A program made the translations under genes and the position numbers. Source: Iphione sp. A-MEVVRFRX5 (lineage: Eukaryota). Taken from it: DNA of 64,000 nucleotides. The first letter of the stretch is position 1, and each line of letters starts with the position of its first letter. The stretch is taken from assembly GCA_976226885.1 (NCBI GenBank), contig OZ320317.1:70122001-70186000 (forward strand). The letters run 5' to 3'. The notes beneath the pieces were generated by a model. The model was not told where the DNA came from and did not search any database. It worked only from the letters and a program-made list of their open reading frames with translations. Below, piece by piece: positions 5,377 through 41,473 of the stretch.

Positions 5377-6236
5377 TAGTCCACTTTTGCTACGAGGAGC
5401 ACCTCTAGGATTAAACGCAATTTGGTCCCTCTTGCAGTCTGGTCTTCTTTGTGGTCTCTTCCTACATACAGATGCCTCTTCCTACATATTTTAGTTTTAC
5501 TAAAATCCTCCCTCCCCTTTGTCATCTGGTCTCTAAGTGAGTGTCAACTCTGTGCGTGCGGCTTGGTTTCACCTCTATTGTCAGAACTCTTATCAGAGGC
5601 ACATCATTCCGGCAGTTTTCAGAATTTCAACTAAAAACCTCTGGGCATGAATTCTAGAGAAATTCCCAAATTTGTTATAAAGGTTTCATTATCAAATGAA
5701 TCTTTAAATGAGGTATAACTGCAAAGAGGTAATAATGAGGGGAATAGACGGCTCCAGATATGCAGGAAACAAGATTTCTTATAGAACGGGTTTAACTAGT
5801 CGAAGTAAATTAAATGGACGTGCAAATATAACTTAAGTAGCCAAGAAGACAACGCGCTACATGTTGGTCAAGTTTTAATTCTTTTTACAGCAACAGATTT
5901 ACACCATCTACTTTCATAAATCCCTTTATACCGATGTACATAAACATGGTTCCCTTCGTGATGTAATTCGTGTATTGTAGTACAAAATATGTATCAATAA
6001 TGTTACAAGAGTCTATTACACTGAATATACTTCCAGATTTAAGAATGATTACACCTTGCCAACAAAATATATTCAAAAGTAACCTTTAGGAGTGAATATT
6101 CTCACAATTTTATGTTTTTACAGTGTTGATTTTGTTATAAAATCACAAAGACGAGTGCACTATCTTGCGCAAACCACACACATCCATGAATGAAGTGCTC
6201 AACAAAATTTGAGTCTAACTTCCATCTTCATCTCAT

Positions 6237-9200
6237 TTACTTGACGAGAAAACTGAAAAAGAAAAGGATTGAGTCATACACAAAGTTTCTACTTTTTTAG
6301 AGGTAGCAGTGCTGATACAGTGGTTGAATTTTAAAGCAAGCTTGTGTATTCCTACACCCCTCTGTTCAGCCAAGCAGAACCGAGGGTTGTAAACTTGCAG
6401 GAGGGATCAAAGTACAAGATACTATTTTACAACCCTTATAGTACACCTATGGTGTGTACATGTATCTACTCGATTTATACATGAATCATACTGATTTACT
6501 AGTTCGTGGAAATTACCATAGGAATCACTTATAATTACTTTATATGGTCTAATTTTTCCTATGCATGTAGCAGAAAGTAGCGACCTTATAATGGAAGAGA
6601 TTTAAAGAGCGTACGATGAGATACTGGGTAATGTTTACTAACAATCTTTCAATTTTATTGAATGCTCGCTTAAAATCGCACCCACCTGTATGGATAACCT
6701 TGGTATTTTGCTCTGAATACTGAGAGCAACAGACTGAAGAACAGGGCCACCGACACCAAACCAGTGATCACCACAACTAAAAAAAGTAATTTCCATATTT
6801 CATTTACAACACATACACTGAACATATGCTAATATAAACACAAAATTAAAAGAATCTTGCCAGTGCTACTGAACGGCAGTGTTGTGGCATCCGAAGTGGT
6901 CAGCCTGGTTTCACATTTAATTTTTGTGTTTTTTTTACACTGCCACCTATTCATTATTAAGTGACAGGCAGTACTACGTAGGTCTACATTTTGTTTGTGT
7001 ATGTGTGTATTAAATGTCATGAATCTTTGTCAGTGTCCTATGTGAGCTCGCAAAGGCGTTCAAACAATTATGAAAGGTTTTATCAAAGTGCAAAGCCCTC
7101 TGATACCATATTTTATTTTTGATATTATTATTAATAATTATCATTATAATGATCATCATAGTACCAGCATTACAATAAAACAAAACCCATCTTTAAATTC
7201 CATACTGACCCATTTTTTATATCGTTAACTGGGATTTTGCTTTGTCTCCTTTATATTATGTTAACAATACAATAACCCCCCCCCAACCTTCCCCATGTAA
7301 TTAAGTCTCACTCTCTAATAAGAAAGGGCCATGTAGTATTTCATTTGGTTTTTTTATCACTTAGAATCCCCTTGTCTTATCAATGTTGCACGATTTTCAC
7401 AAGACAGACGTCAGCAGGTTTATTATGAACACTTACTTCGCTTCTTGCTGGCATCTCCTTTAATATTGTTTGCTTCGTTCAGCAAAATCATCCCGACAAC
7501 AACAGCAACATCTGGTATCTCGAGTTAAGGAAGTTCATGCAATTGCTTTCATTCCAACAGTAACAGATTAAAACAAAGAAATTTTTGCAGGTGTTTCATC
7601 TCAAGAAAATGTATTCATTATTCTACTATTTTCTGGTTGATTAACATTAACAGTTTTCCCAGCAGAGATGTACTGCAGGTTCCATAAGAGACAGATGAAC
7701 GTGGGGGAAGAGAAAGAGAGAGCAAAACGTAGAGCCCTCCTCCTTCATACACATACATACAGATGCAGGTGATGCCAGAGAGGACAGCAAAGGCTTGCTG
7801 TCTTACGTTATGTCATTTGATGTGCAGTGTATAATGTGCACGGATTCAGTGAGGGGGTAGTATGCAAAACCCCATCACCTCCACCTATACACATGCTTGT
7901 GCATACAGCAGTTAGCAATGGTTCCCAGTTTAACACCAAATCATTTGGTGTGCACTGTACTGTACCCAATGTCAGTGTGCACTGTGTATAAATACTATGT
8001 GTGCCTCAAGCTATTAAGTGTGAATGTGTAAACATGTCCTACATCATATAATTCTGTATTATGTATACTGTGCGTGTCTGACAGTGCATCAATTAGTGCA
8101 CACTGTTTATATGCTTTGTGCATGAAACTGTGTCAGTCAGTATGCACCATGTATACTCTATGTGCCTGACATTGTGCCATTTAGTAGGCACTGTGTATAC
8201 TTTTTATACCTAACAATGTGTCAGCAAGTGTACACTGTGTGTGCTCATTGTACCTGATACTGTATCAATCATGTACAGTAGGACGTCCCATATGCGGACA
8301 CCCTTGGTTCTGTCCCAAACTGTCCGGATTTCAGATGTGTCCTGATTATAGATCACTTAGCAGTAAATGAGATGTGTATACATTATTATTATTAAATTTG
8401 AAGAATAAGGGTCCTAAAAGTACTAAATTTGATGATCAAGAGTCCTAAAAGTACTGAATTTGATGAATAAGTGTCCAAAAAGGACTGAATTTGATGATAA
8501 AGAGTCCTAAAATTACTGAATTTGAAAAGTAAAAATCCAAAAAGTACTGAATTTGATGAGTAGAAGTCCTAAAATTACTGAATTTAATGATTAAGAATCC
8601 AAAAAGTACTGAATACAGTGGGGTCTGTGAAAATGACTACTGAGGTCTCTCTGCTGCCTCTGGAGCCTCCCTTCACATGACAACACCTCGTCCACAGGGT
8701 TTATTCATAACTACCTTTGAAAATGACTTCTGGAGCCTCTCTGGAGCTCCAAATTCACGCAACAACACCTTGCTCACAGGGTTTATTCATAACTACCTCT
8801 GGAAATGACTTCTGAAGATTCTCTGCAGTCCCAAATTTGCCCAACAAACAGTGTCCATAGGCAGAAGTTTTGTAAAATTAGCTGTTCTTATTGTAGACAT
8901 CTGTGTGTAATGCTTAAGTATAGAAAACATATTGGTTCTTTTTTAAATCGTCCGCATTTGAGATGCATCTGCATCCCAGAAGTGTCTGTGAGGGGACATT
9001 GCACTGTATATGTGTCATACATCACGTCTTACATCTATCGGAGTATGAAGTATGACCCTCTGCCTACCTATCTATTGAACTCCTCCCCCCTTTCAAACCA
9101 CTAATCCACCAATCAGCTTGGGTTAGAGTGTCAAGTGTCCATGAGGTCTGCATGGGGGGGGGAATGTATTACTGTCCCCTACACTTGTCACCCTGCCCCT

Positions 9201-15200: not shown

Positions 15201-17856
15201 AGCCTAAATATCACAATATTTGTGCAGTATTCGTCATACTCCTCAATTTTCATTAACGGTATGTAATTCTATGAATTACACATCCATATATACCACGTTG
15301 AACAGCAACACTTTACTGTTATTACACAACATGATGTGGTATACTAAACAAATAGATTGTAGACGAAACTATACATAATTTGTTGTCGGCGTTGTATTGG
15401 CAATAACAGTATAAAGACAAATACCGGAACAAAAAAACAGTATGATAGTAAAGAGTAATGATGTTCCAGTGCAAACTAGTTATTATGCCACTTTACCCCA
15501 AAAAAATATGGAGCAACACACCTCATACATAACATCAGCTTAAAAACCTAGCACTTTTGATGCAGCGGAGACTCATGAGATACATTCAAGTAAGAAGTGT
15601 CATTCTTTTAAGAAACAAACATTTAATTTAGACTGTGTAGACTAGCGGTAGGCGGAATACATACACCTGAGAAGACGTCGGGCCCCTCATCATAGTCGAC
15701 CATGGCAAAGAACAAGCGATTGGAGTACTGCTGACTATAGCGCCATGAGTTCGCCACAATAAGATACTCCTCATTTGCTTGTCTGTTGCAAAGTATGAAA
15801 CAAATTACAATTACAGGCGTTAGCAATAGGCCCTTCACAGCGAATATTTGTTTTACAATATACATTATAATCAGCAAAGAGAAATCCCAACGTTGTTTTT
15901 TTATTGAAAAATGCCTCATATGTTATGTTACTGTCAGAACTGAGGACACGCCCTAAATGGGGACACCTCAACTGGGAACCAAGGTTGTCCCACTAAGCAC
16001 GGGTATAGTGTTCATACAGCTAGGATGTCTCACAAGTACATAATGATCACTATGCTATGAATTCTGCATTTACTGACTCGATTGTAACAAAATGGATACA
16101 TTCTTTTACAACAAGACTGCGTGGACTGCTTTTTAGTGGTCTGTGGTTGCATAAGGCCAGTGACCTCATGACTTAACCGTTGATGTAATGAGCTAATCAC
16201 TGACAGTTGAAGACATGGGTACCAGTACTGCAGATGTACTTTTTACCATGTGTGACCCAATGGGAATCAACCAATCAGATGGCTTTATTTTGTGACAATG
16301 TCCAAATTAGTAAAAAAAAAAAAATATGTTTGCAGTACCTGTTTCTTCAACCGTTGCCAATCACTGGAACTTTGGGAGTCTTTATTTGTGTTCTATCGTT
16401 CATAAGGAAACTAAAACAATTATTTTGCAAGGCTAACGTATTAAAGGTTATTTTGCAGGAAAACCATTGACCATTAAATGCAATATCCCAACGCAGAAAA
16501 CACAAATCCCAAATTATACAAATTATGCCTGGAAAGATCATTAAAATGTGTTCCATGTTAACTTGCCTGCATACAGAACATTGTCTCTGGCTTTGCAGGG
16601 CCGTCAGCATGAGGATAACTGAATAGTTCCGGGGTGGTGCACGTAAGTACTGGCGGAACTTGTTACCATCCATACGGATCACTGATTTTTTATTGCTCCA
16701 ATCCATCAGGGTCTGCACTTTTTCTGACAGGACCGCCTGCATGTAAAGAAGCCACAGGATTTATACAGAATGACCACAGGGTGCTGGAACGAGTATGCGT
16801 ACCATGCCAGGTTGATTATTTTTCCCGAACGAGACCGCAGGTCGAGTTCAGGAAAAATAATCAACCTGGCATGGCACACATACGAGTTCCAGCATCCTGT
16901 GGTCATTCTGTTTTTATTCCATGCCTTATTTGATGAGAATTTGATTTGAGTAATGTCTTTTTGAAGATTTCGTATCAAATGGGAAGTATACAAGAAGCAC
17001 TGAGCATGTGCAGAAGCATGCGTTTTTTTCACTTCCTGTTTACTAGTTGATGCGAAACACTTTCTTTTAAAGTTAAACATACTTTTAAATGACTTCAATA
17101 TGCATTTAAATTGTGTGTATAATCATTATTTAACTGATTTTCATATCGATTGTGCTTAAAATTATTTATTGGAAGAATATTTCCATGTTGAAAGACTGAA
17201 TCGGCACATGTCTGCCATTTTGTTTGTTTACATTTCGAATCTGAAGAAACCTTTTGTTTACTGGGAAATAAGCAGTAAAACTGGTCCAACTCACATCAAA
17301 GTGTGAGCATATGTTCAATATATGGCTATCCATCTCATAAATTTACTATAAACAAATCATTTTTCATTTTGATTTTCAACGTGTATACCGCACAGGCATG
17401 TGGTACGCACGAGTGTACTAATGGGCCAGCAGCGGGTGGTACACGCAGGTTGTACGCGCACAGGCATGGAATAAATTGGGGTCCCTGGGCGATATTAAAG
17501 GTTTTCTGCTATTCACTGATATATTTCCATCTACTTTAAAGGGAAATTACTTTTCATTGATTTGACAATCTTTTATCAGTTAAATCTATAACTGTTTTGG
17601 AGGAATGTTTTTGTTTAGCGTAGTTAATAACGTCTACTCATAGAGCGATTTAGCTTATTTACATCCACACTATATAGCTGCTTGGGTACGCCGGTATGCC
17701 ACATCAATGCTCAATAAATTCTACATCGGTGAAACAACACTGTGCATTATGTGTGGCACATCAGGCGCGACAAATTACCTCTTTCTTCTTTGGAACGGCT
17801 AAAACTACACATGGCAGTATGAAAATCGTAAATATCAGGATTATCCTTGTGTCCAT
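6237..17856 (-). CDS. TUSC3/MAGT1: Oligosaccharyltransferase thioredoxin-like subunit TUSC3/MAGT1 (OST3/OST6 family), complete, 11 exons, 327 aa
   Basis: Exons (-): 17856-17779, 16736-16567, 15782-15665, 15177-15095, 14940-14883, 14559-14419, 13671-13582, 12957-12894, 7511-7437, 6776-6686, 6252-6237. These total 984 nt and are all phase-consistent. The protein has a signal peptide ([20 protein letters not shown]), a CSVC motif, [53 protein letters not shown], and ends [15 protein letters not shown]. Confidence 0.97.
8405..8615. repeat. 31-bp minisatellite, ~7 copies
   Basis: Unit ~AAAAGTACTGAATTTGATGATAAAGAGTCCT; the GTAC/GGAC anchor recurs at 8420, 8451, 8482 and onward. Confidence 0.9.
8629..8870. 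repeat. Degenerate ~85-90-bp tandem repeat, ~2.5-3 copies
   Basis: GAAAATGACT...CAACAC...CACAGGGTTTATTCATAACTACCT recurs. Confidence 0.7.
14941..15094 (-). other. GC-AG intron 4 of TUSC3/MAGT1
   Basis: Donor CACAG|GCAAGT and acceptor tttcag|A, giving the in-frame junction EIHR-VGFSAE. Confidence 0.9.
15783..16566 (-). other. GC-AG intron 2 of TUSC3/MAGT1
   Basis: Donor TGCAG|GCAAGT and acceptor caacag|A, giving CSVCR-QANEEY. The nearby GT alternative produces an in-frame stop. Confidence 0.88.
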
Positions 17857-18367
17857 CTTCCTCCATATGGCTAACAACAGCTGAAACGTCGCACGTTATG
17901 ATTGGCTAGTCAACAACCTCGACCCTGGTAGTCGCACACAGAGTGTCGGACCCCAGCTTTGACACCAGAGGGCATCTCAATCTGCATGATGATGAAGTGC
18001 TTCACGGCACTGAAGTGCGTTTTCACTCCTTGACTCGAAATGCAGGTCTTAAATCTGACGTTAACATTTGTAGAAGAAGTTCCTCTGGCTTTAGGATCAC
18101 GGCTTAGCTTGAACGTGTAACACAGTACTGTTAGTTAAAAGACGATGCATGAAAATGGGTACTGTACTGTCTATGTAAAGTGTTTATATATAAGTAGTAA
18201 TAATGGCCTTTTAACTAAGAAGCAATTGAAAATTTGTCATTGGTGTACGTGACCCTATGCAGTTGTAAACGTATCCATTCCTTATCTTAGTGATGAGGTG
18301 ACAATTAGGATTAATGTGCAGAAGTCGTTAATGTTATGGAGAATATCTAGTTCCTGGTTAAAGATAC

Positions 18368-18844
18368 TGTAGTTTCTACTTGGGTTCAATAAAGAACTGA
18401 CAACTCTGAGTCCTGATTCAAAACTGTCTTTATTCAGGTTCCCTCTCATATTTATATCTTTTCTCCAATCCAGGCACTAGCCAATCATCTGTCAGTAACA
18501 GAGTAAGAAAATACATTGTTACCTTCTTTAACAGCCCTTTCAACTAACCCACCAACCAGGAGAGAGCAAAGTATCACTTTTGGGGCTGTGGGACCACAGC
18601 CGAGTGCTGCCGATCCAATCACAAGAGAGCTTTGAGACTCCAGGGTAGTTTGTTTTAAATCCAGGGGTGGCTGTGGTACCACAGCGACCCTTAGTGCATG
18701 TGCACCGAGTCCAGTACTCCTGCACTTACTTCGTTTGACCAGTGCACCCCGACTGTGGCACCACACACTTCTGCGCACAGGGCGTGCGCCCGTGCCTCCA
18801 CCTGTGGCACCACAGCTCGCGGCCGGCTCCTGTATACCACTACA
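18368..18844 (-). repeat. 3' LTR
   Basis: Differs from 27877-28353 at 6 of 477 positions by manual comparison; minus-strand TATAAAT (~18450) and AATAAA (18434-18429); four TGTGG-N2-CCACA palindromes. Confidence 0.97.
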
Positions 18845-18857
18845 CTCTCCCCTCTTT
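18845..18857 (-). other. Polypurine tract
   Basis: AAAGAGGGGAGAG directly abuts the 3' LTR on the minus strand. Confidence 0.9.
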
Positions 18858-19082
18858 AAATTACACCCACCCCTGAGGGGTGGGGCGAAGCATCACACCC
18901 TAGAAGATCAATGTAGGAACAGCAATTCTAACTCAATCTCCCAACACTATAGCCACTAGGTAGCTTCCTTAATTTTAGCACCAATGAAATTTCTCTCGCC
19001 ATCATTACTTAACACCTGCTAAAATTTTACAATGCATCTAATCCCAAACGTATCCAAGTGTCCCTGAGCATGCAGTCTTATA

Positions 19083-19312
19083 GGCTTGAACTACGGCTTA
19101 CGGCCGTGGTAGTTCAGTAACACAGTCATATCAAATGAACTAAGGCTTACGGCCATGATAGTTCAGTGCAATAGTCATATCAGATGTGGAGGTATGTAGT
19201 CCTCTGAATGTGAAGTAAGGCTTACGGCCGTGGCAGTTCAGTGAAACAGTCATATCAAGTATGGGGGCTTAAGGCCGCAAAAGTTCAACCAACCAATCAT
19301 ATAAAAAAAACA
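19083..19312. repeat. Four degenerate ~50-70-bp direct repeats in the element's 3' untranslated region
   Basis: GGCTTA(C/A)GGCCRYRRYAGTTCA...A(G/A)TCATAT at ~19095, 19144, 19218 and 19266. Confidence 0.75.
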
Positions 19313-19535
19313 CTATCATACTTTGAATTCAACAACGGAGAAGCCCGTGTTGGGCAAAACTTGACCTCTACGTAAACTCTGAATCTTGCCTCACTCTCTC
19401 GGAGGAAAGTTTGATCATCGGGATGATATCAGTCTCACGTGGAGTTTGAGGCCCGAGCAACGACACCAACTCAAATAAAAAAACATTCTTTAACCGCTCG
19501 GGCCCCTACTCACCACCCTGTGGAGGTCGGCTGTT

Positions 19536-20605
19536 CTACTCCTCCGTCCACATCACATCAGTGTTGGTGCGAAGCTGCTGAGGGGGGCGGGCCTCCAGAA
19601 GGTCCCACACAGTGGGATCCTCCGCTCGTTGTTGGGCCCGCGCCGCCTGCGCCTCCCGCTCCCAGGTGTCGAAGGCCTCGCGCCTCGAGGCTGCCGTCGT
19701 CGCGTAGGTCGGACGCGGGTCTTCGAGGAGGTTGGTCGCGGCTTCGATGGAGCGGTTGTGCCAGCGGGTGACACGTTCGCGGTCGCCCCACTCGAGCCGG
19801 TCAGGGATCCGCATCCCTTCCAATGCGAGGACCGGCCGCCTGACCAGGGGGTCGATGAGGTGCTGCGGCGATGCCTCCGACTCCGCCAGGGCCAGAACCC
19901 ACGCCAAGGAGGAACTGGCGATGAAGCGCGAGGTGGGGCTCATCTCCATCCAGCGGGGAGGGGGCCATTCCAGCCGCTGGGGAAGACGTACCATAGTGGG
20001 AACCATGACGGCTCGCCGTACCGCCGGGTAGGGTGGCACTCGGCCGTCCAGAATCTCCCGGACTCGACGGGACAGCGGGCCGAGCATGGGCGTGGTGAGC
20101 TCCCGTTCTGCCAGTCGTTGAAGGTGTCCTGGTGGGAGGGCTGCCTCCCGGGGCCGATCGCTTGACGGATGAGGGTGTCCGGAGGCCTCCCAAGCCGTCA
20201 GGGTGTCGAGGAGGGCGGCCGGACTCCAGTCAGGGGTCGGGAGGGATGGCCCCCCCCGCAGTAGACTAGTGACTGACGCGGGCGTCCCTGGAGTGGCGCT
20301 GCTGCTTCGCGGTAGGCGGGAGCCGTCAATCCCCTCTCCACGACCCATGGATGGCGCCGCCGCAAGTGGGCGAGCCAGGTGCCCGGCTCGCCTAGGACGC
20401 TGGGACAGAAGAGGCAGTCCATCTGTCGGTGTCGACAGCCCCCATGCTGCTCCTTCTGATGGCGCTCCAAGGACTCCCCCGCCCAGTACACCCGGTGGGG
20501 TGTGCAGAGCTCGCACCAAGCCGTACCAGGGGGCAGGGGCTCTCCTTCCTCCACCTGGGGTGCCGGGGGATGTGCCACTTTCTGCCGGGGCATGCCGCTT
20601 GCCAT
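19536..20605 (-). CDS. Retrotransposon accessory protein: two C2H2-type zinc fingers plus an unknown C-terminal domain, ~356 aa if the G8 run at 20250-20257 is read as G9
   Basis: From the ATG at 20605: CELC-x14-HQKEQH and CLFC-x12-HLRRRH. The overlapping 382-aa frame becomes protein-like from GPSLPTPDWSPAALL onward. One extra G at the run joins the two frames. Confidence 0.65.
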
Positions 20606-20630
20606 AGAGAGGGACGGCCAGGCAGGGTGG

Positions 20631-21463
20631 TTGTGGAACCACAAGCTCGTTGACAGTACCGGTTAGGTCAAGACGTGGGGCCACAGACTACAACACACAG
20701 AGATGAACAGTCAATGGCAGATAATCACTGTGGTACCACGGACAACAAGCTGGCTGCCTTGGGGTGGTCACTCAGCCGCCCTTACCTATCGTCGGAGATG
20801 GAGGTGCGAGGTGCGGCCACAGCCCGGTGATGGCGACTGCTGCTCCTCGCCCAGTCACTTGATCCTTCCGCAGCGTCTGCCCGAAACCGTGGTCTGTGGT
20901 TCCACGCTCACGATCGGCCTCCTGTTTCTCAATGCCCCGTCGGATGTGTCCACACAGAAAGACTTATTTTTGGCACTGTCCCCCGGTGTCCCCACTGTTC
21001 TTCTCAGCCTCTTCTCTCCCTCACGTGGCCAGCTGTGGTGCCACGGGCCGCCATTGATCACGTCTCGCGAGACCACGGGTTCTCTCGCGCCCCGCGAGAT
21101 CCCGTGTCCCGCGTCCGTATCTCATCTGTGGGCCCGCAGCGAAACTGCTTACTCTACGACTGCTGAAGGTTCATTCTTTTTGTACTATAGGGGACTGGTA
21201 GGGATAGGACAAAACTGTGCTACACCACTCTATTTCCCTTCCTTCGGCTGTGGCACCACAGGCACTTTCGCTGCGTTCTCCCTCCAGAGGGCGACACCTC
21301 CTCCCCGCCTGTGGTTCCACAGCCCGTTCACCTGATACATTGTATCAGTTATTTCCCCCGATCCCACCAATCTCCCGTTATGTTGGATCTCTGTGGCACC
21401 ACAGTATGAGTGGTTACCCTCCCAGCCAATCGCTCGAACGCCAATGATATCTGTGGCACCACA
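20631..21463. promoter_or_regulatory. Cluster of ~10 TGTGG-N2-CCACA palindromes between the divergent accessory genes
   Basis: Copies at ~20631, 20674, 20728, 20894, 21033, 21126, 21248, 21309, 21391 and 21451; the half-sites are conserved and the 2-nt spacer varies. Confidence 0.75.
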
Positions 21464-21560
21464 TACACGATCTTCGCTGCCCGCCGTAGCCAATCATCTT
21501 GGCTCACTGCGCTCCCCCCAAATATAAATGAGATGGGCTACGGCCAGCCTGCTTCATCTG
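21424..21560 (+). promoter_or_regulatory. Putative internal antisense Pol II promoter
   Basis: Three CCAAT boxes (~21426, 21441, 21490), TATAAAT at 21523-21529, and an Inr-like TCA ~30 nt downstream. Confidence 0.6.
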
Positions 21561-21760
21561 GACTCTTGCTGCACCCCACCAGGCTTCTCTATCCTTCCAG
21601 CTACCCCTTCCAGCTACCCCAGTTCTACAGGTATCCATCTTATGTAGGAATGGCAACTGTTTAACATCTTTGAACTAGCTGAACCAGAGACAAATCATTT
21701 TTTTTTTTTTTTTTTTTTTTTTTTTCACGGGTTTCTCCCTTTTTCAGCCTAAACCCAGCC

Positions 21761-22630
21761 ATGACCAATCAAGGGACCGCGTTTGGGCACCTTCCTGCTA
21801 CCGCTCTTCGGCCTTATCGCCTGTGAGTGTTTGGATAACTCTTCCTCTACTTCCATTCGTTCTAAGTGTTATCCAACATCGCCCCTTCCTGGAGTTTAGT
21901 GTCAGCCAGACCCATCTTCATTTTTCCTGCCTATTTTCTCTTCCACAGGCTCCGCTATCGACCCACCCTGCCCGGGTCAACTCCCTCTGGCGTGAACATT
22001 CATACAGAAGGGCCGGTGGTACGAGTTTCCGGCACCCATGAGATCATAGATGCCCCCTTCATCTTGCCCGTTCCGGGTCGTCTGATCTTCCTGGGACCGC
22101 TTCACATGATTGACCTGGTGGTACGCCCCATCGCCCCTCCTGGCTCGGCGCGGCCCCCGCCAACGATGCCCGCCCCATCAGACTGGGCTGCTTGCTACAC
22201 CACCCCGCTGCCCCCACCGGCTTCTCCCTCCTCCAGTGCTTCCGGGTATAGCACCGACAGCCCCTCATCCCTTACCAGCAGTCGTCTGGACCCCTGGGGA
22301 TCCCACCAGGACCTCTCCGCGATGGGCGCATCACCACCCCCGGCGGATGGATCGGGCCGCTCCTCTCCAAGCCCGCGGCCGTCACCCGCCCCGTCAGGAA
22401 AAGACTCTGTACTGCCTCCGTCTCTGGCCGTCATGAGGCCAGAATGCACTACCCCCGAGACAGGCGATGACATCTCCTGCGGCTCCTCACCCCTGGGGAC
22501 TTCCCCTCCGGGAGGTCATGTGCCCTTCTCGGCGATTTCGACTCCCGCCCTGGCAGCCTGGTATCGTCAGCTTCGTTGGGGCGACGCCCCCTTCTGCCCT
22601 ATTCTGGTATCTTCCTCCGATGAGGAATAG
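21761..22630 (+). CDS. Spliced antisense accessory gene of the Gypsy element, 247 aa, unknown function
   Basis: Kozak ccagccATG at 21761; donor CT|GTGAGT at 21823; acceptor ttttctcttccacag|G at 21948; both phase 2. The product runs MTNQGTAFGHLPATALRPYRLLRYRPTL...FCPILVSSSDEE*. AATAAA lies at 22697-22702, followed by a GT-rich tract. An upstream intron 21631-21747 contains a T28 tract. Confidence 0.65.
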
Positions 22631-23024
22631 GACTTTGAATGGCAATTATACTCCCCATGCTAAGTACTCTGTAGTTGCGTGGCCGACATACCTTGAAATA
22701 AATTTCAGCTAACTGATTTGTCCCTTGTGTTCGTTCTATGTTCTATTCGCTCTCAGACTTAACTATTCTCACCCCGCTCGTCATCCCGTAGCAGCGACCA
22801 GAGGACATAACCCGAGCAGGTTCTAATTCTTACACCCTGGTCCGGGTTGGCTCTACCCCTGATAGCGTGCCGGCTCACCCAGAGGACAAAGCCTGGTCAG
22901 ACCTCCGTCTCCTTCTGGCCCAGGCCGGCTCCACCGTCAGTTCCACCTTCATGGTCTGTCAACTTCTCAGCTACCACGGGCCTACACTGCGAGTGGCCGC
23001 AGTGCTGCCCTCCCTAACCGGGAG

Positions 23025-23372
23025 CCTCCCCCCCTTTTCTCCCCCTAGAACTTTTGGGTACCACACCCGGGGATGTCCAGCCTCCCCCTCTGGAGCTTTT
23101 GGGTCCCGCACCCGAGGATGTCCAGCCTCCCCCCCCTGGAGCTTTTGGGTCCCACACCCGAGGATGTCCAGCCTCCCCCCTCTGGAGCTTTTGGGTCCCA
23201 CACCCGGGGATGTCCAGCCTCCCCCTCTGGAGCTTTTGGGTCCCATACCCGAGGATGTCCAGCCTCCCCCCTCTGGAGCTTTTGGGTCCCACACCCGAGG
23301 ATGTCCAGCCTCCCCCTCTGGAGCTATTGGGTCCCGTACCCGGGGATGTCCAGCCTCCCCTCCCTGGAGCTC
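23025..23372. repeat. 45-46-bp GC-rich minisatellite, ~7.5 copies, just downstream of the pol stop
   Basis: GATGTCC anchor at 23072, 23117, 23163, 23209, 23254, 23300 and 23345; units differ mainly in C-run length. Confidence 0.93.
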
Positions 23373-23415
23373 TCTGCTCTCCCTAGTCCGACCTCCATTG
23401 GAAGACTTTTTCTTT

Positions 23416-26400
23416 TTACGAGCTCCCTTCCTTATTCGCGCGCCGCCACCAAGACGCGATCCAACGAGGTATCTCCCCACGATACAGTCGTAGGCGATTC
23501 CGGTGCACCACCTTGGGGCGAGCCCGGGCTGCCCGTTGGACCACCAATCGCTCTGGGTCCAGCACCTTGGTGACGAGCCATGGACCCGTCCAGGGCAAGT
23601 ATACTTTAGGGCTCTTCCCTCTGGGTGGTTGAGCTTCCTGTAACCACACCGCGTCCCCTTCCTGTAGGGGTTCCCCTTTTGCCTGGCGATCATATCCTCT
23701 AGCCTGCGTCCGTGCAGCCTTTACCAAGTGCTCCCGGACCGTCTGGTAAGCCCTCTTCAGCTGGCGTTGAAGGCGCTGTACCCACTCTGGCATAGTCACC
23801 TGTTCCTTCCCCTCCCACTCGCTAAGAGGGAGGCCATCCATCGCATGCGCTGGCAGGACCACCTCCCGACCGAACATCAGGAAGTTAGGTGTGAAGCCAG
23901 TACTGGCTTGGGGGGAAGCTCGGTACGCCATCATAAGCAGTGGGAGTGCTTCGTCCCAGTCGTCGTCGGTATCATGGCAGTGGGCTTTAATCATTTTCCC
24001 TAGCGTGCGAAAGCTCCTTTCGATAAATCCGTCCCCCTGGGGGTGCCTAGGGGTCGTCTTGGTTCGCTGGATTTGCAAGAACTCGCACAGAGCAGAAACA
24101 ACTTCGCTGCAGAAGTTGGTCCCTCTGTCGCTGTGGAGCTCCATGAAACATCCATACCGAGAGACCACCTCCTCCACTAGTACTTGTGCTATCCGGGTTG
24201 CCCTCTGATCAGGCAGTGGGAAGGCCTCTAGCCATTTAGTAAAGTGGTCCCCCACCATTAAGATATAACAGTTGCCCCGCTTGGTATGGGGGAACGGACT
24301 GGCCACGTCCATGGACCATCTCTCCATTGGCTCCCCGGACACATAAGTGCGCAGCGTTGTCTGTGGGCGGAAGGGGTTTACTGTGAGGAGGGCACAGTGG
24401 CATTTCGCACAGAAGTTTTGTATATCTTGTTGCATCCCAGGCCAGTAATATGCCAAAGACACCAAGAAGGTGGTACGGTCTATCCCTAAGTGGCTACCCA
24501 TCCGGCCTTGGTGGATTTCTTCGATAGCCTTGACTCGTCGCTGCGCAGGGAGTACCAGCTGCAAGCGTGTTCTTGAGGCTTCGAGCTCATGCCACCGCCG
24601 GTATAGCAGCCCCTCTTGGACCACCAGACGGTCCCACTGCTGCCATAGTTTCTTGGCCGCCCTTGACAAGGGAGAAATGTTTTCCCACTCTGGCCTACCA
24701 GACGTATCCTCCTTCAGCGTCAGGATAGGTCCAATATCTGGGTCATCCAGCTGCGCACCCCGAAGGGCGCGATCTGCCGCCCCCTGGGTGCGGCCTCGGG
24801 TGACGACTCGTACCTCCACCCCATGCTCTTGCTTGCACTGTTTACACGGCATTCGGGATAGAGCATCCGCATTACCATGTAGGCGCCCTGGTCGGTGCTG
24901 AAGGTGGAGGTGATATTGACCGATTCTCTCCAGCCATCGGGCTAACTGCCCCTCAGGGTCCCGAATACGGCTCAACCAGCTAACCGCCCCATTGTCCGTC
25001 CGCACCGTGACCTCCTGCCCGTATATAAAAAAATGAAAATGTTTCAAAGCAGCTACCACCGCCAGCAGCTCCCTCCGCATCACACAATACCTCCATTCCG
25101 GTGACGTGAGGCTGCGACTAAAGTATGCGAGGACTACCTCCTGGCCTTCCTGCTCTTGGGAAAGCACGGCTCCCAGCCCTACATTGCTGGCGTCTGTGTC
25201 CAAATAAAAACGTCCCTTAGGCATCGGGTAGCCCAGCACGGGACTGGCCTGCAATGCCCGTTTCAGGGCTTCGAAGGCCTCCTCTTCTTCGGGGCCCCAA
25301 TAAAACCGGGTCCGAGGGCTAGTCAGCCGGTGTAGGGGTGCTGCTAGATCGGCGAAATGAGCCACCAGACGGCGGTAGTAGGAACAAAGTCCGAGAAAGG
25401 CTCTTATGTCAGTAGTGGAAGTCGGCTTCGGCCATTCCTGGATACACTGCACCTTCCCGGGATCTGCCGAAATCCCCCGATAGGACACCCGATGCCCCAG
25501 GAAGGGAACCTCCTCAAGGAACAAACGGCATTTAGCCAGTTTCAATTTTAAACCAGCAGCCTCAATTCGAGAGAGCACCCGATCCAACCGAGCTAGCGTC
25601 TCCCCAAAATCCCGCCCGAATACCAATACGTCGTCCAGATAGACTAGACATTGCTCCCAGGTCAGTCCCCTGAGTACCGTGTCCATTAAGCGCTCAAACG
25701 TAGCGGGAGCGTTGACCAACCCAAACGGCATCACCGTAAACTCGTACAACCCCGAGGATGTGGTGAAGGCCGTCTTTTCCTGGTCCCGCGGATCCATCTT
25801 AACCTGCCAATAGCCCGATGCTAAGTCTAACGAACAAAAGTACCGAGCTCCCGCCAGTGCGCTTAACGAATCATCAACTCTGGGTAGGGGATACGCATCA
25901 ACCTTCGTCTGTTGGTTTAGTTTCCGGTAATCGACACAGAAACGAGTAGTCCCATCCTTCTTGCGTACCATGACTACGGGACTTGCCCAGGGGCTCTGGC
26001 TCTCGACAATGACCCCGGCCTCTGCCATTTCCCTTACTAGTTGCTGTTCTTCCTGTCTTTTTGACAGGGGCAGGCGCCGAGGTTGCTGTTTAATGGGACC
26101 TGACTCCCCCGTGCAAATACGATGTTGCACCACGTCCGTACAACCCAAATCACCTTTGTGTTGTGTAAAGGCCCCCCTGTGCCGTTCTAACACCACCCGC
26201 AGCTCTCCCTGTTCCCCTCCAGTGAGGTGAACTGTCTTAGTGGCCATCAACTCATCTATCACGGTCCCTGCCCCCACCTTTGTGGTAGCCACTTTCAGGG
26301 GGTGATCTTGAGGGCAGTCAGTAACCTCCTCCCTCTGCACTGGCGAGCCAAGGGCTAGAGACGTCCCCTGTTGGATCAACAGTTCCCTCTCCCCAGTGTT

Positions 26401-27006
26401 CCACACGGGCAGCACCTGGCTTACAATGCAGCGCACTCCTACCACCCCTTGTAATAACTGACCCTCCTCTAAGCCCTCTACCAAGAATGGGCCCTCTCCA
26501 CTGGGAGACACTGGGACCCCCACCCCTTCCCCAGGGGGAACCGTAATATCGGAGGCTGCCCTCAGTACCTTAACTCCTCTGGTCTGTTCCTTCCCCCTAG
26601 GGGTCCCTCCAAACAAAACCTCCCCCTGTGACAAGTCAATGACAGTGCCATGCTGGGTCAAGAAATCTGCCCCCAATATCCCATCCCCTTCTATCTCTGC
26701 TAACAGGAAGTGGTGTTTGAATTCTTTTCCAGCAATCCCTACTTGAACTTCCTCTCTCCCTACCGTTGGCAGGATATGGCCCCCTACCCCCATAACCTTC
26801 ACAGCAGCCCTCTTAACAACTGGGCCAGGGACCACACAGGGATTCATAATGGAAACTTCAGCACCCGTATCAATAAGCAGTAGGAGTGTCCTCCCACCAC
26901 AGCTTACCTTGAGATGTGGTCCCTGGCCGTATTCCATTATCACCTCCTGGTGGACAGATGCAGTCGGTGTCCCCTGGCCTACTGAGCCGACTGCTGTGTG
27001 TTTTCC
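23416..27006 (-). CDS. pol: Pol polyprotein (protease, reverse transcriptase, RNase H, integrase), probably expressed by -1 frameshift from gag
   Basis: The 1175-aa ORF 23416-26943 contains LLIDTGA (PR), FCVDYRKLN and YLDD (RT), LDTDAS (RNase H), H...H...CAKC plus SMDV/HSDRG/IERS (integrase) and WTGPW (GPY/F). The frame is open up to 27012. Confidence 0.97.
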   Translation of the reverse strand, partial: GKHTAVGSVGQGTPTASVHQEVIMEYGQGPHLKVSCGGRTLLLLIDTGAEVSIMNPCVVPGPVVKRAAVKVMGVGGHILPTVGREEVQVGIAGKEFKHHFLLAEIEGDGILGADFLTQHGTVIDLSQGEVLFGGTPRGKEQTRGVKVLRAASDITVPPGEGVGVPVSPSGEGPFLVEGLEEGQLLQGVVGVRCIVSQVLPVWNTGERELLIQQGTSLALGSPVQREEVTDCPQDHPLKVATTKVGAGTVIDELMATKTVHLTGGEQGELRVVLERHRGAFTQHKGDLGCTDVVQHRICTGESGPIKQQPRRLPLSKRQEEQQLVREMAEAGVIVESQSPWASPVVMVRKKDGTTRFCVDYRKLNQQTKVDAYPLPRVDDSLSALAGARYFCSLDLASGYWQVKMDPRDQEKTAFTTSSGLYEFTVMPFGLVNAPATFERLMDTVLRGLTWEQCLVYLDDVLVFGRDFGETLARLDRVLSRIEAAGLKLKLAKCRLFLEEVPFLGHRVSYRGISADPGKVQCIQEWPKPTSTTDIRAFLGLCSYYRRLVAHFADLAAPLHRLTSPRTRFYWGPEEEEAFEALKRALQASPVLGYPMPKGRFYLDTDASNVGLGAVLSQEQEGQEVVLAYFSRSLTSPEWRYCVMRRELLAVVAALKHFHFFIYGQEVTVRTDNGAVSWLSRIRDPEGQLARWLERIGQYHLHLQHRPGRLHGNADALSRMPCKQCKQEHGVEVRVVTRGRTQGAADRALRGAQLDDPDIGPILTLKEDTSGRPEWENISPLSRAAKKLWQQWDRLVVQEGLLYRRWHELEASRTRLQLVLPAQRRVKAIEEIHQGRMGSHLGIDRTTFLVSLAYYWPGMQQDIQNFCAKCHCALLTVNPFRPQTTLRTYVSGEPMERWSMDVASPFPHTKRGNCYILMVGDHFTKWLEAFPLPDQRATRIAQVLVEEVVSRYGCFMELHSDRGTNFCSEVVSALCEFLQIQRTKTTPRHPQGDGFIERSFRTLGKMIKAHCHDTDDDWDEALPLLMMAYRASPQASTGFTPNFLMFGREVVLPAHAMDGLPLSEWEGKEQVTMPEWVQRLQRQLKRAYQTVREHLVKAARTQARGYDRQAKGEPLQEGDAVWLQEAQPPRGKSPKVYLPWTGPWLVTKVLDPERLVVQRAARARPKVVHRNRLRLYRGEIPRWIASWWRRANKEGSS

Positions 27007-27845
27007 GACGGTTTAGGCCCTGTAGCGTTCGATGCTTGCTGTGGGGCTTTCGGGCAATCTCTCTTCCAGTGACCCGGTTGCTTGCAGATGAAACACAAAT
27101 TGTCCCTGGGCCGAGACCTCTGAGGTCGCAGTTCCTCCCGTAGTTTGGCAAACTCCTGCATTAGGACTTCCACCATGTCCTTGGGTGCTGGGCTGTTAGA
27201 ATCCTTGTTGCCACTTGCTTGTATGGCATTCACTCTCCTCGCGGGGAACCGCTCCTGGATCTCCACTACCTGTAGTGCAGCCTCCATGGTCTTGCATTGG
27301 GCTTCTAAACATTTCAAATGCAGGTCGTCCGGGAGTGCCCGTTGGAAGGCCGACACTGCTGCTAATTCTCGTGTTTCCGCACTCACATCGGGGTACGCGG
27401 TGCGTACAAGTCGTCGGACTTTGTCAGCAAACCCCTTAGCATCCTCCCCTTTCTGCCTGCAGATCGTGGACAGGTCTTGCATAGCCGTCACTCGATTGCG
27501 TCGACGCCCAAACCGCTTCTCCAAGGCAGCTACCCTGGACTCAAAGTCGGCCTTGTCCTCCGATGGGAGGTCTCCAAAGTACATTTGGGCGGTGCCAGTC
27601 AACGACAGAGCCAGTGCTGAAGCTCTTGTGTTCGGACTCCACTTGCATGCATCTGCCCATTCGACAAACTGGACAATCCAGCTGTCCCAGTCGACTACGC
27701 TGCCATCGAATCGCTTGGGCTTCATGGCGTTGGTGCGTAGTGGCTCCTCTGGGGCTAACACATAAGGTTCAGCTTCCTCTTCATCATCCGCATCCGGTAC
27801 GCGCAACTGTACCTCGTCATCAACTGCCACAAACTTAGTAGCCAT
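26979..27845 (-). CDS. gag: Gag, 288 aa, with a CCHC zinc knuckle
   Basis: KPKRFDGSVVDWDSWIVQF capsid-like start; CFICKQPGHWKRDC knuckle; ATG just after the PBS. Confidence 0.95.
   Translation of the reverse strand: MATKFVAVDDEVQLRVPDADDEEEAEPYVLAPEEPLRTNAMKPKRFDGSVVDWDSWIVQFVEWADACKWSPNTRASALALSLTGTAQMYFGDLPSEDKADFESRVAALEKRFGRRRNRVTAMQDLSTICRQKGEDAKGFADKVRRLVRTAYPDVSAETRELAAVSAFQRALPDDLHLKCLEAQCKTMEAALQVVEIQERFPARRVNAIQASGNKDSNSPAPKDMVEVLMQEFAKLREELRPQRSRPRDNLCFICKQPGHWKRDCPKAPQQASNATGPKPSENTQQSAQ
27000..27006 (-). other. Candidate -1 ribosomal frameshift site G_GAA_AAC
   Basis: In the gag frame (TCG GAA AAC), inside the gag/pol overlap; pol is in the -1 frame. Confidence 0.6.
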
Positions 27846-27857
27846 GATGTACAGTGG

Positions 27858-27875
27858 ATCCCACTTCTGACACCA
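27858..27875 (-). other. Primer-binding site complementary to the tRNA-Leu 3' end
   Basis: TGGTGTCAGAAGTGGGAT, 1 nt from the 5' LTR; complementary to ...ATCCCACTTCTGACACCA of tRNA-Leu(CAA/CAG type). Confidence 0.88.
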
Positions 27876-27876
27876 G

Positions 27877-28353
27877 TGTAGTTTCTACTTGGGTTCAATA
27901 AAGAACTGACAACTCTGAGTCCTGATTCAAAACTGTCTTTATTCAGGTTCCCTCTCATATTTATATCTTTTCTCCAATCCAGGCACTAGCCAATCATCTG
28001 TCAGTAACAGAGTAAGAAAATACATTGTTACCTTCTTTAACAGCCCTTTCAACTAACCCACCAACCAGGAGAGAGCAAAGTATCACTTTTTGGGCTGTGG
28101 GACCACAGCCGAGTGCTGCCGATCCAATCACAAGAGAGCTTTGAGACTCCAGGGTAGTTTGTTTTAAATCCAGGGGTGGCTGTGGTACCACAGTGACCCT
28201 TAGTGCATGTGCACCGAGTCCAGTACTCTTGCACTTACTTCGTTTGACCAGTGCACCCCGACTGTGGCACCACACACTTCTGCGCACAGGGCGTGCGCCC
28301 GTGCCTCCACCTGTGGCACCACAGCTCACGGCCAGCTCCTGCATACCACTACA
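27877..28353 (-). repeat. 5' LTR
   Basis: 477 bp, TG...CA, followed by the TSD ATAC. Confidence 0.97.
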
Positions 28354-28858
28354 ATACAATGAAATGAAATGAAACATTCGATCCTACCCCTGGACGGAAC
28401 TAACACAATGGGCAGTTAATCTTATATTGTCTGAAGGACATCCATTGAGATACACAATGAGTTTTGCATACCTTTGATAGCGTGTTTACATCACTAACGT
28501 ATATAAGTAAGGAGTTGCATGTCCCTAGTGGGACTCGCTTGTAAACAACTGGGAAATCTGTCCTGTGCTCTGCAATAAAGGCCTGACGAGAAGAACCTAT
28601 GTGTGGTGTATTTATTGTTACAAATGACTTCGGAGGGATGTGGCACAAAAATAGTCCCCCCACTGGTGCTGAACTTTGTTCCTCAAAACCTACCGGTAGT
28701 GTTTCTTGGACTCATAGTTATACCATATTGTCTTTTTTTTTCACCCAAATCTTATAGTCTCTTACTTCATGATGAGGCCAGCCACAGACTAGACAGTCCC
28801 CTAGATAATGCTGATAATACTCATTTTTTCCAAGGCAGTTATCCCAGATATCCAGAGT

Positions 28859-38760: not shown

Positions 38761-40374
38761 ATTGAATTGAATTGAATTGAATTGCTTTTATTTATGTCTC
38801 CGATAAATTGGTACAGAGCTTTTCACATAAATATGAGGTATATTGCATCGGTTCATAAAAATGATTATATAATATAAAAAGTCAATGTATAGCAGCTAAG
38901 TAAAACGTAGTATATGTAAGCATCATTACTATGATAGTCTATTGCACAGGCAGGTCAATGTATAACAACTAAGTAAAACGTTGTTTATGTAAACATTGTT
39001 GCTATAGTAATCTATTGCACAGACAGGAAGTTTCACATCTTTGGTTATCAAAATTGCACACGATCACATTTGAGTCTCCTTCAATTATAATGAGGCAGTA
39101 TTGAACAAGTGTGCATCCAATTAGACACAATAGCATTATTGAGACCCAACAGTGCTGTCTCAATTTTCCATAATCACCTAGACTCCACATTGCACTTTAC
39201 AAAATTCCTTGTGCCAGATGGGAACTTATCAATCCAGGGGTAACGCTTCACTCTTCCATAATAAACATACAGATTCAGGTCTGATAGTGAGTGCATTCAG
39301 AACACATTTCACCAAGCATTACTGTTTGATATCATACAGTCTACTAGACACTTTGAACTATCAGCAAGCAGTACTCCAGGATACTGTGCTGAGTTAGTAC
39401 ATCTGCATTATTCCTTTCACACAGCAAGCAATTTCCATACACATGCATAACCTCCACACATATTTTCACCTTTTATACAACCACAGCCAAAGAATCCTGA
39501 TGACAACCGATAACACTCCAAAGACAGATAGCAAGTGCTCTACCAAAAAGATGTGCATTATTCATGTCACTCAGCTGACAAATTTCTATTCAGACTGTTT
39601 TCAGCAGCTCTGACACACTGAGTGTGAATTCGGCATCACAATGTGCTACCTGACCATCGAAAGAACAGCTCTAGGTAGTTTAGCTGCATTTTTCGCTGCA
39701 ATAGGGAGTGAGTTCCACGATGTTACTGCTCTATAGCGCAGTGACCTCGCAAAGTGGGTTGACCTTGGCCTCTCAACCATGAACCCTCTCACTCCCTCTT
39801 CTCTCATCCTGTAGCGCCTTTCCTCAAGCAGCAGGCCCAATGCCTGCAATTTGTGGACTGCCTGCAGGCCTCTGTGATCAATGGTATACCCAAGAAGTTT
39901 TACAGTGGGTGCCAATATCATTGGCTCATTCTGTAGATACACATCTAGCGGTATTTCAGAGGCTTTACCCAGAGGAGTATAAGCACATTTAGACGGACTT
40001 AGCAATAGTCCCTCCCTAGTCACCCACTGATGGACAGCATCCACCATGGTTTGAACCCTCCCTCGAAGTTGCAGGAGGTCAGATGCTTGGACTAACACCG
40101 ATATGTCGTCCGCATACATGACTGGGATGCTGTGTCTTGGCAGGCAGGACGGAAGAGTATCTACCACCAACATAAATGCACTAGGGCCAAAAATTGACCC
40201 CTGGGGCACGCCCTGCTTCAAAACTTTGACGCCAGACATTTCGGCTCCACATCTTACAAATTGCTGCCTATCTGTAAGATAAGAGGCGATCATTCGCCTT
40301 ATCCTCACCCCTGCCCCAAGCACTGTTAGGCGTTCCATAATCTTGTGATGCTGTACTACGACAGATGTGACCAA
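38761..40374 (-). mobile_element. 5'-truncated non-LTR retrotransposon (CR1/L2-group-like) with an RT fragment and a (CAATT)n tail
   Basis: GVPQGSIFGP...MYADDISVL at 39646-40374; AATAAA plus (CAATT)n at 38761-38790 on the minus strand. Confidence 0.85.
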
Positions 40375-41473
40375 TAATTATAATACTATGATTATGCTAG
40401 GAAATTATTTTGGTGTGTTGTTGAAATTATGAACATTAATTCAATGATCTTATACAAGTAGGTAAAGCCAAACCAATGTCATTCTTTAATTTTTTACTGG
40501 AACTTGTGATAGGCTTGATGTCTTCACCAGTAGAGGAGAGGAGGCCTATGAAATGTAGTGAGCTTAGTCACCTGACATCAAGATGTTTTCCATAAGACCT
40601 TGATCATAAGAGCTACTGCAGGGTATGCTATTTTCATGTGAGTAAAGGTTTGCAACTGACAAGATCCCAGACTAAATATGGATGCAAAAGTTGTGATGTT
40701 CATCTCTGTATACCTGTTTCCATATGTATCATATGATCAAGCATCTTGATCGTCTTAACATTCAGGACTAGGTCATTGACAAATACTTGCTCAAAAAGCA
40801 TGAATTTACATGTATTTGATTAAAAACACCCTGGGAATGAAAAATAAACATGCATAATGTATTGAAATAATTGACTTACTTGGTGTATTTTTTTCTCTAG
40901 CACATATGTCCATACATGTCTTATCCATAACGAATAAATAAATTATGTAAATCCATGTTTATGTAATGTGAGAAGTAAAAGGTCCATTTGATGTGTAAAT
41001 CCAATTGACAATAAATAAACTCATATTTATGCAGGAAAAGTAATTCAAAGTGTATCTCCACAATGACTTTTCCTTAGGCAATTGGACAAATAATGCTTCA
41101 GCTAGTTTGAAAAAATACACAAATCCATGATGTTAAGCCATCTGATTATCCTGAACATATTGTATCATGTCTCTGGTCTCTGGAATGGATGACTTCGCGA
41201 AATAAAGAAGGTCCACATGGTGAAGTGAGCTCAGTGTGTTCTCTTCCAGTGCAAATGAGAACTGTCTTTATTCAAGAAAATCTGTCCCTTATATACAGAA
41301 TCTCGCTCTAAAATTAGCCACAATGATGTAACAGTACTCCTAAAAAAAGCAACAATCAAAAAACCTTTTCTTCCGACAATATGATGTAAGAAGTAAATTT
41401 TCCATTTGATTTGTAAATCTAAGTGACAATTCAGAAAAAGTCCATATTTATCTAGAAAAGGTAATTAAAACTA

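Follow-up and report, generated by a model that had tools for sequence, protein, structure and literature searches.

The stretch analysed here, referred to as the window, is 64,000 nt of the genome of Iphione sp. A-MEVVRFRX5 (contig OZ320317.1, positions 70,122,001 to 70,186,000 of the forward strand), with all coordinates counted from its first letter. Its subject is an array of short inverted repeats, TGTGG-N2-CCACA (dyads), carried by a Ty3/gypsy retrotransposon with long terminal repeats (LTRs). The element and its dyads are laid out as follows.

18368..28353, minus strand: full-length Ty3/gypsy LTR retrotransposon, with TG..CA ends, a 4-bp target duplication ATAC (18364-18367 and 28354-28357) and Pfam domains
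27877..28353, minus strand: 5' LTR, 477 bp, with dyads at 28096, 28181, 28263 and 28312
27856..27875, minus strand: primer binding site (PBS), with the same start in 8 related loci
26979..27845, minus strand: gag, an open frame with a CCHC knuckle
23416..27012, minus strand: pol, an open frame for protease (PR), reverse transcriptase (RT), RNase H (RH) and integrase (INT)
20632..21463, no strand assigned: internal cluster with ten dyads, five of them exact (20632, 21249, 21310, 21392 and 21452) and five with one mismatch (20674, 20729, 20895, 21034 and 21127)
18845..18856, minus strand: polypurine tract (PPT)
18368..18844, minus strand: 3' LTR, 477 bp, with U3 dyads at 18587, 18672, 18754 and 18803

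The PBS is presumably of the tRNA-Leu type. Paired LTRs, TG..CA termini, a target duplication, PBS, PPT, a CCHC-bearing gag, the PR-RT-RH-INT order and gypsy-type relatives all place the element in Ty3/gypsy, and a Pfam domain search found no env domain in it. Its nearest pol is P0005 (64% in RT-RNase H), and those pol relatives that have a name come from arthropods, molluscs, echinoderms and fish, at up to about 50%. The observed/expected CpG ratio of the host flank is 0.43. The two LTRs differ at 6 positions, none of which falls in the 48 dyad bases against about 0.6 expected, a divergence too low to judge conservation. The element is a recent insertion in an animal genome and is probably functional. 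An additional 4.5 kb of sequence separates pol from the 3' LTR, and it is in this part that the internal cluster is found.

Exact dyads number 13 in the window, four per LTR and five in the internal cluster, against a chance mean of 0.15, and 13 was reached in none of 100 shuffles. The sequence-only reading had counted about 18 copies confined to the retrotransposon. Eighteen are indeed present inside it when one mismatch is allowed, but only 13 are exact and a nineteenth copy with one mismatch lies outside, at 13629. Since the four LTR sites are duplicated, the independent dyads are 14, nine of them exact and five with one mismatch. The four copies per LTR were correctly noted, with starts that were off by 0-2 nt, and the internal total of about 10 also holds, although it is made up of five exact and five one-mismatch sites. 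It was likewise right that no exact copy occurs elsewhere in the 64 kb, although chance predicts the same for the remaining 54 kb of the window. Neither gag nor pol contains a dyad.

Local shuffles gave similar results: the 10 dyads of the internal cluster compare with a mean of 0.07 and a maximum of 2 in 1000 shuffles, and the four dyads of the LTR with 0.04; shuffles of the whole element likewise stayed far below the observed number. When any 5-bp palindrome with a spacer of 0-12 was counted, the best in 30 shuffles had two copies versus nine observed. The geometry is strict, as GTGG-Nk-CCAC occurs 17 times in the element at k=2 and at most three times at every other k from 0 to 12. The pentamers TGTGG and CCACA are in turn largely restricted to this arrangement, 23 of the 25 present in the LTR and the cluster being inside dyads. 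Of note, two-mismatch sites are also present at 20945-20956 and 20810-20821; the first remains a perfect palindrome with both inner G altered.

The sequence surrounding the dyads has no such constraint. Flank identity among dyads is 0.29, the same as the 0.29 background obtained at random positions of the same regions, and Tandem Repeats Finder (TRF) reported no tandem array at the cluster. These unrelated flanks indicate that the array is not a tandem repeat, as had been claimed at the outset, and inverted half-sites, fixed spacing, above-chance frequency and unrelated flanks together describe a homotypic cluster. An old tandem amplification, or an internal duplication of the LTR, of which the dyads were a neutral relic could account for a CA/TG spacer shared by six of the 14 dyads and for the few words of 8-15 nt that the LTR and the cluster have in common. 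These words are not collinear, however, and the combination of near-invariant cores with randomised flanks, next to the background flank identity and the TRF result, makes such an origin highly improbable. The separate possibility that the cluster is a decayed LTR copy was ruled out, the alignment being limited to the dyads and to short non-collinear words.

Both groups of dyads are found next to promoter-like sequences. In the LTR, the order in the direction of transcription is four U3 dyads, three CCAAT boxes (18615, 18481 and 18465), a TATA box ATATAAAT (18450-18457) and AATAAA (18429-18434). The internal cluster shows a comparable arrangement with the following parts.

21367..21529, plus strand: internal promoter core, with CCAAT at 21367, 21426, 21441 and 21490 and a TATA box ATATAAAT at 21522-21529
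21332..21348, no strand assigned: 17-bp palindrome, which we take to resemble a DMRT site
21063..21072, no strand assigned: TCTCGCGAGA, the Banp motif, in a single copy in the window
20780..20788, minus strand: strong 5' splice-site consensus with its donor at 20785, within the cluster and upstream of the zinc-finger open reading frame (ORF) described below, as judged with consensus weights

On the plus strand the cluster runs into the CCAAT/TATA core, and it is read as the upstream portion of a putative second promoter. The internal TATA 8-mer is identical to that of the LTR, and a 13-mer with a CCAAT box at 21487-21499 is identical to LTR positions 18478-18490; sharing over 13 nt was seen in 0 of 300 shuffles. 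The observed/expected CpG ratio of the cluster is 0.5-1.0. The endoplasmic reticulum stress response element (ERSE), CCAAT-N9-CCACG, was considered as well and rejected, its spacing not fitting. The TCTCGCGAGA sequence is known as the Banp motif of CpG-island promoters (PMC9363121).

The array is real and non-random, and it is almost surely regulatory. The lack of a tandem repeat, the fixed geometry of the dyads and their location at promoters together make a dimeric DNA-binding protein the best reading, and it is very probable that the dyads are duplex DNA sites bound by a dimeric transcription regulator, at two promoters of a single element. The homodimeric protein site proposed by the sequence-only reading is therefore supported as regards a dimeric binder, whereas the protein that fills this role is still a candidate. 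Palindromes drive genome dimerisation in retroelements, and self-complementary 12-14-mers are indeed located here in the 3' portion of the genomic RNA, which would suit a role of the array in RNA, as hairpins that can replace one another or as signals for dimerisation and packaging, or else as an extrudable DNA structure. Several features make this very unlikely. The arm sequence is fixed: compensatory changes are absent from the 14 sites (at most one mismatch), and on the genomic (minus) strand pairing is lost in four of the five variants. A loop of 2 nt would be too short, Rfam gave no match at E up to 1, and the dyads are positioned upstream of TATA boxes.

Alignment of the 28 half-sites of the 14 dyads extends the half-site beyond TGTGG, to a consensus of about GnC-YGTGG(T/C), in which position -1 is C in 22 and position -3 is G in 17 of the 28, and all three G of the core are invariant in 28/28. 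The 2-nt spacer had been described as varying freely, which is not the case: among the 28 spacer bases that adjoin a half-site there are 14 T, 7 C, 4 G and 3 A, hence 21 pyrimidines, and at least one such T is present in 12 of 14 dyads (p about 0.0006).

A similarity of the half-site to the binding site of Runx had also been pointed out, with a host factor as an alternative ligand. As in the enhancer cores of retroviruses, the dyads would then bind host Runx/CBF-beta, with either one Runt domain on each dyad or two, the latter in a tighter dimer than any described. The Runx consensus is PyGPyGGTPy (PMC6497270), and its core is found in 28/28 half-sites. In addition, the five variants all exchange one pyrimidine for the other at the two Py positions of this consensus, versus 1 of 26 background one-mismatch matches; the three G are those that never vary, the sixth base is T or C as often as given above, and a complete YGYGGT is present in 12 of 14 dyads. 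Runx is able to dimerise on palindromes, and the Runx1/CBF dimer on TGTGG-N4-CCACA shares with the array its half-site core and inverted orientation (PMC2952845). However, this dimer was demonstrated on a 4-bp spacer, already with minor clashes, and a 3-bp spacer led to use of one half and no dimer (PMC2952845), while the window has a spacer of 2, 14 independent copies and an outer GnC preference. GTGG-N4-CCAC occurs once in the element, in pol. Selection for a monomer predicts solitary sites, yet 14 of the 16 YGYGGT hexamers in the LTR and the cluster sit in dyads. Furthermore, TGCGG accounts for one of the 28 half-sites even though CpG is not scarce in the cluster, and the seventh base is mostly a purine, contrary to the consensus. 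The proposed alternative thus stands as regards the half-site and all five variants, but not as regards the published mode of dimerisation, and Runx is an unlikely ligand.

The cluster is bordered on both sides by the starts of accessory genes, namely a C2H2 zinc-finger ORF and a predicted spliced antisense gene:

20198..20605, minus strand: third ORF, 5' frame, 135 aa, with two C2H2-pattern fingers and a start 27 nt from the first dyad
19536..20255, minus strand: third ORF region, overlapping second frame with a predicted helical orphan domain, within a stop-free stretch of 383 codons (19536-20687)
21748..22702, plus strand: predicted antisense gene, with an exon at 21748-21822, an ATG at 21761 in good context, a GT..AG intron at 21823-21948, a stop at 22630 and AATAAA at 22697

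From this CCAAT, TATA, splice and polyadenylation anatomy and from the flanking gene starts, the internal cluster is read as probably a bidirectional promoter between two accessory genes, made of LTR-type parts. The putative second promoter, the predicted antisense gene on its other side and the longer half-site all go beyond the sequence-only reading.

The finger frame contains two CxxC...HxxxxH units, with a match to Pfam zf-C2H2_4 that falls short of the cut-off (E 0.026) and a linker that is not TGEKP-like. A search of 1.84 billion sequences with this frame returned one match, a generic multi-finger protein. For the second frame, a stop-free length equal to its 383 codons was reached in 0 of 500 shuffles, and no homologue was found among 3466 candidates (lengths 131-419). 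The stop-free frame of the antisense gene is 254 codons long, a length equalled in 14 of 500 shuffles; its 126-nt intron keeps the frame and the AATAAA lies 67 nt past the stop. The predicted product is a Pro/Ser-rich orphan protein with an acidic C-terminus, and a search with the antisense exon gave no homologue among 1452 candidates (lengths 124-396). The end of this protein (22600-22630, plus strand) is a hydrophobic and then acidic stretch, which we assume to resemble a phospho-SUMO-interaction motif, as in some viral anti-silencing proteins. An Atlas search with the accessory ORFs returned generic C2H2 look-alikes and a sub-threshold FHA lead at 0.75. Single-sequence AlphaFold models of these ORFs were poor (pLDDT 43) and a fold search with them gave generic three-helix bundles (Z up to 8.2), while a codon-usage test was uninformative, as gag itself was not separated from its other frames.

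The same dyad is present ten times at the internal promoter and four times in the LTR U3, and this layout suggests how the element might regulate itself. The internal promoter would be weakly active at a base level through host NF-Y, TBP and Banp-type sites and would give rise to a regulator protein, encoded by the C2H2 third ORF or else by the antisense ORF. This regulator would occupy the 10 sites at its own promoter and then the four in the LTR, whereupon the genomic RNA would be switched on. We infer that both promoters fire, that a protein binds the dyads, that this binder is a dimer encoded by the element, and that its effect is activating rather than repressing. An element-encoded ligand is ranked first because the dyads are peculiar to the element, border both accessory genes at their starts and are found again in U3, a layout that matches the Tas loop of foamy viruses, and the zinc-finger ORF is plausible as this ligand by its position. 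The whole self-encoded loop, in which an element-made regulator acts on the dyads at both promoters in the manner of a foamy virus, is put forward tentatively, as quite possible though short of probable. Papillomavirus E2 offers a further parallel, with its many spaced palindromes (ACC-N6-GGT) that have unrelated flanks and bind a self-encoded dimer; papillomaviruses differ in being DNA viruses, and E2 is unrelated in fold and sequence.

In the foamy virus Tas circuit, an internal promoter is located 3' of pol, response elements are present at this promoter and in the LTR, and a dimeric regulator has been proposed (PMC3798896). With the Spumaretrovirinae the window element would thus share an internal promoter 3' of pol and upstream of accessory genes and, at the level of sequence, one and the same candidate response element there and in the LTR U3. 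Unlike these viruses, the window harbours a Ty3/gypsy element devoid of env, with one strict palindrome and a TATA-bearing promoter that is antisense, and its loop is a proposal of the present analysis. No homology to Tas turned up in the database searches of the accessory ORFs, none of which was aimed at Tas. Given its gypsy-type pol and the lack of env or Tas homology, the element would at most work like a foamy virus circuit and not be a member of that group. The Tor3b/4b elements of Oikopleura are gypsy-type elements with an internal promoter driving env (PMC4402516). They resemble the window element in having a second promoter 3' of the 5' LTR that drives a third ORF, but this ORF is Env and is in sense orientation only, and no shared dyad array is seen in the part of that article available (PMC4402516). 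Internal promoters in gypsy-type elements are therefore already known from Tor (PMC4402516). What appears to be new here is an internal cluster that would form the upstream portion of a putative second promoter having the CCAAT-box 13-mer and the TATA 8-mer of the LTR.

Relatives of the element were collected by a pol-alignment scan of GTDB contigs, which gave at least 72 gypsy loci; two of these (L005 and L045) were excluded before counting, leaving 70 loci and 687 kb. These loci sit in bacterial metagenome-assembled genome records but are evidently eukaryotic DNA, some of the contigs being over 500 kb. The end of pol was assignable in 50 loci, 48 of which have at least 300 nt after pol. A C2H2 ORF on the sense strand 3' of pol was found in 12 of these 48 (L001-L004, L009, L013, L015/18/20/21, L031 and L053, four of them near-copies of one family), and two further loci, L047 and L024, are marginal. 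The following could be delimited.

C2H2 third ORFs: L001 8466-9032, L002 3822-4175, L003 6198-7511, L004 5997-6236, L009 6746-7435, L013 4878-6158, L053 2193-3179
Unnamed C-terminal domain of the third ORF: L003 7029-7511, L013 5790-6158, L001 288-713, with 28 invariant columns in 3 rows and no Pfam match

The finger ORFs of the relatives start at most 1.8 kb from pol, often right behind a splice acceptor. In the finger pairs of seven relatives, the second finger has Arg at -1 in 7/7 and Arg or Lys at +6 in 6/7. BTB/POZ is an oligomerisation domain, and the third ORF of the marginal locus L047 (7326-9089) combines a finger-like N-terminus with a C-terminal BTB/POZ (BTB_2, E 7e-13). An RT-RNase H tree with 86 rows groups the window element with L001-L004, L013 and L047, in a clade of 25 rows (SH-aLRT 96). 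The distribution of the finger ORF on this tree corresponds to at least five changes, many of the unlabelled rows being proteins or contigs that end before the 3' region. The relatives with C2H2 ORFs are thus similar to the window element in their pol (up to 58% in RT-RNase H), in the sense finger ORF after pol and, for several, in the PBS; they differ from it in the start of the finger ORF close to pol and in having canonical recognition helices, with no antisense gene seen and no dyad arrays. No description of a C2H2 third ORF or of a self-encoded transactivator in gypsy elements was found in a search of a literature collection with few subscription papers or repeat databases.

A number of these results weigh against a loop encoded by the element. 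The match of the half-site to the Runx core is one of them. In this copy, the third ORF is divided over two frames, which overlap around a homopolymer run near 20250; this split may be a lesion, an assembly error or a case of recoding. Judged by the C2H2 recognition code, which relates helix positions to bases, helix positions -1/+3/+6 of the two fingers (A/S/R and E/T/A, with a single Arg) are a poor fit to a G-rich site in which three G never vary. Pfam, homologue and Atlas searches revealed no recognisable DNA-binding domain in the antisense ORF. The finger pair of the window scores 12.4 bits against the fingers of the relatives, with a best reversed decoy at 10.9, and no match was obtained between the C-terminal frame and the domain conserved at the C-terminus of the relatives (probability 2%). 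In tblastn, the window fingers matched the relatives at E 0.024; with this weak similarity, a homology of the two sets of fingers would rest mainly on position. The exact dyad is also absent from the 70 related loci, where 25 one-mismatch copies are scattered, and no dyad array was detected in 13 finger-bearing relatives once tandem repeats and second LTRs were masked, the best corrected palindrome p being 0.019 vs 1e-17 for the window. The third ORF and the dyads hence do not form a coupled module across the clade.

Some of these observations fit instead a homotypic cluster for a dimeric host transcription factor, gathered by both promoters for cell-type expression beside NF-Y, Banp-type and DMRT-like sites. 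Arrays of host-factor sites are common in LTR elements, such as the Su(Hw) sites of Drosophila gypsy; both promoters are otherwise assembled from host-type parts, the finger-bearing relatives have no dyads and the fingers of the window appear degenerate. Conversely, no candidate factor can be named, a literature search on the dyad words found no paper that appears to present the dyad as the site of a factor, and 54 kb of host DNA contain no exact dyad, though chance gives the same. A host dimer of this kind is therefore considered rather unlikely. Met31 and Met32 of yeast, which are two-finger C2H2 proteins, bind a related word. One paper containing the dyad words deals with a Cbf1-Met31 spacer library, and the Met31/Met32 site, TGTGGC, has the same core but is monomeric, non-palindromic and fungal (PMC1488866).

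Palindromes of other kinds are enriched in related loci without a finger ORF, namely TACATGTA in L011/L012 (p about 1e-13), CTTCT-N2 in L070 (2e-7) and GGAGC-N11 in L054 (5e-8), and palindrome enrichment alone is thus not unique to the window. Strong enrichment concerns TACATGTA in L011, L012, L052 and L056, and CTTCT/TCTGG-N2 in L061 and L070. In L001, GCTCG-N3-CGAGC was considered as a possible case of co-variation with the finger ORF and ruled out, as it lies inside a 78-bp coding tandem repeat and is gone on masking. Two weak leads do favour a coupling of finger ORFs with DNA sites. First, L053 has CCAAT and TATA immediately upstream of its finger ORF (1950-2190), and seven of its 22 ACTCGG copies lie in 8% of its length (internal promoter and U3, 5625-5990; p 0.002, for a word chosen after looking). 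CTCGG/CCGAG is frequent throughout this element, which has an additional charged ORF of 586 aa at 3616. Second, tandem arrays of differing period, all with CCTCA, are found 5' of the PBS in L001 (1990-2190), L003 (1-130) and L004 (1-40), and the complement of CCTCA fits the code guess GAG-G for the fingers of these loci; the arrays are perhaps merely homologous. Of note, the U3 of L054 (about 6650-6720), an element without a finger ORF, contains several direct-tandem GTGCGGT/GTGGT Runx-like words.

Complex retroviruses are marked by transactivators that they encode themselves and that have DNA sites of their own; LTR retrotransposons are usually taken to make use of factors of the host. The window element, with its private dyad at two putative promoters and its two accessory genes, would permit a direct test of whether such a circuit arose outside Retroviridae; if true, the loop would be the first case of a gypsy retrotransposon with a transactivator circuit that it encodes itself, and this chance is testable. 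In its widest form, the proposal is that the element independently evolved a complex-retrovirus circuit, with its own dimeric factor made from a bidirectional promoter and acting on a private palindrome, an opposite arm giving a spliced antisense regulator with a SUMO-interaction-like tail, and C2H2 third ORFs as overlooked transposon transcription factors; as a whole this is possible but somewhat unlikely. Should the ligand be a host factor, the array would define a mode of dimeric binding, with a new spacing in the case of Runx, that was not found in the literature searched. Whichever ligand is right, the presence of a finger ORF in 12 related loci is relevant to the connection between transposons and C2H2 genes. 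Each new insertion of the element would also disperse 14 strong sites and two promoters in the host genome.

Other observations concern the remainder of the element and of the window. Directly 3' of pol, a GC-rich tandem repeat of 45-46 bp is present in seven copies (23041-23371), spanned by stop-free frames on both strands, and a 49-bp unit forms three diverged copies between the third ORF and the PPT (19070-19258). The antisense strand of the LTR carries an AATAAA (18388-18393, plus strand), a possible terminator of antisense transcripts. The insertion point of the element lies next to or inside another repeat (18307-18366), of which an inverted copy is found at 45.5 kb (45545-45604, 78%). 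An intronless and uninterrupted frame of 994 codons (59071-62055, plus strand) encodes an ankyrin-repeat TRP-like ion channel, which is absent from the protein collection searched. Elsewhere, the window contains an RT fragment (39646-40377), a Harbinger-type DDE fragment (49559-50149) and an inverted repeat with 92-bp arms (16745-16931).
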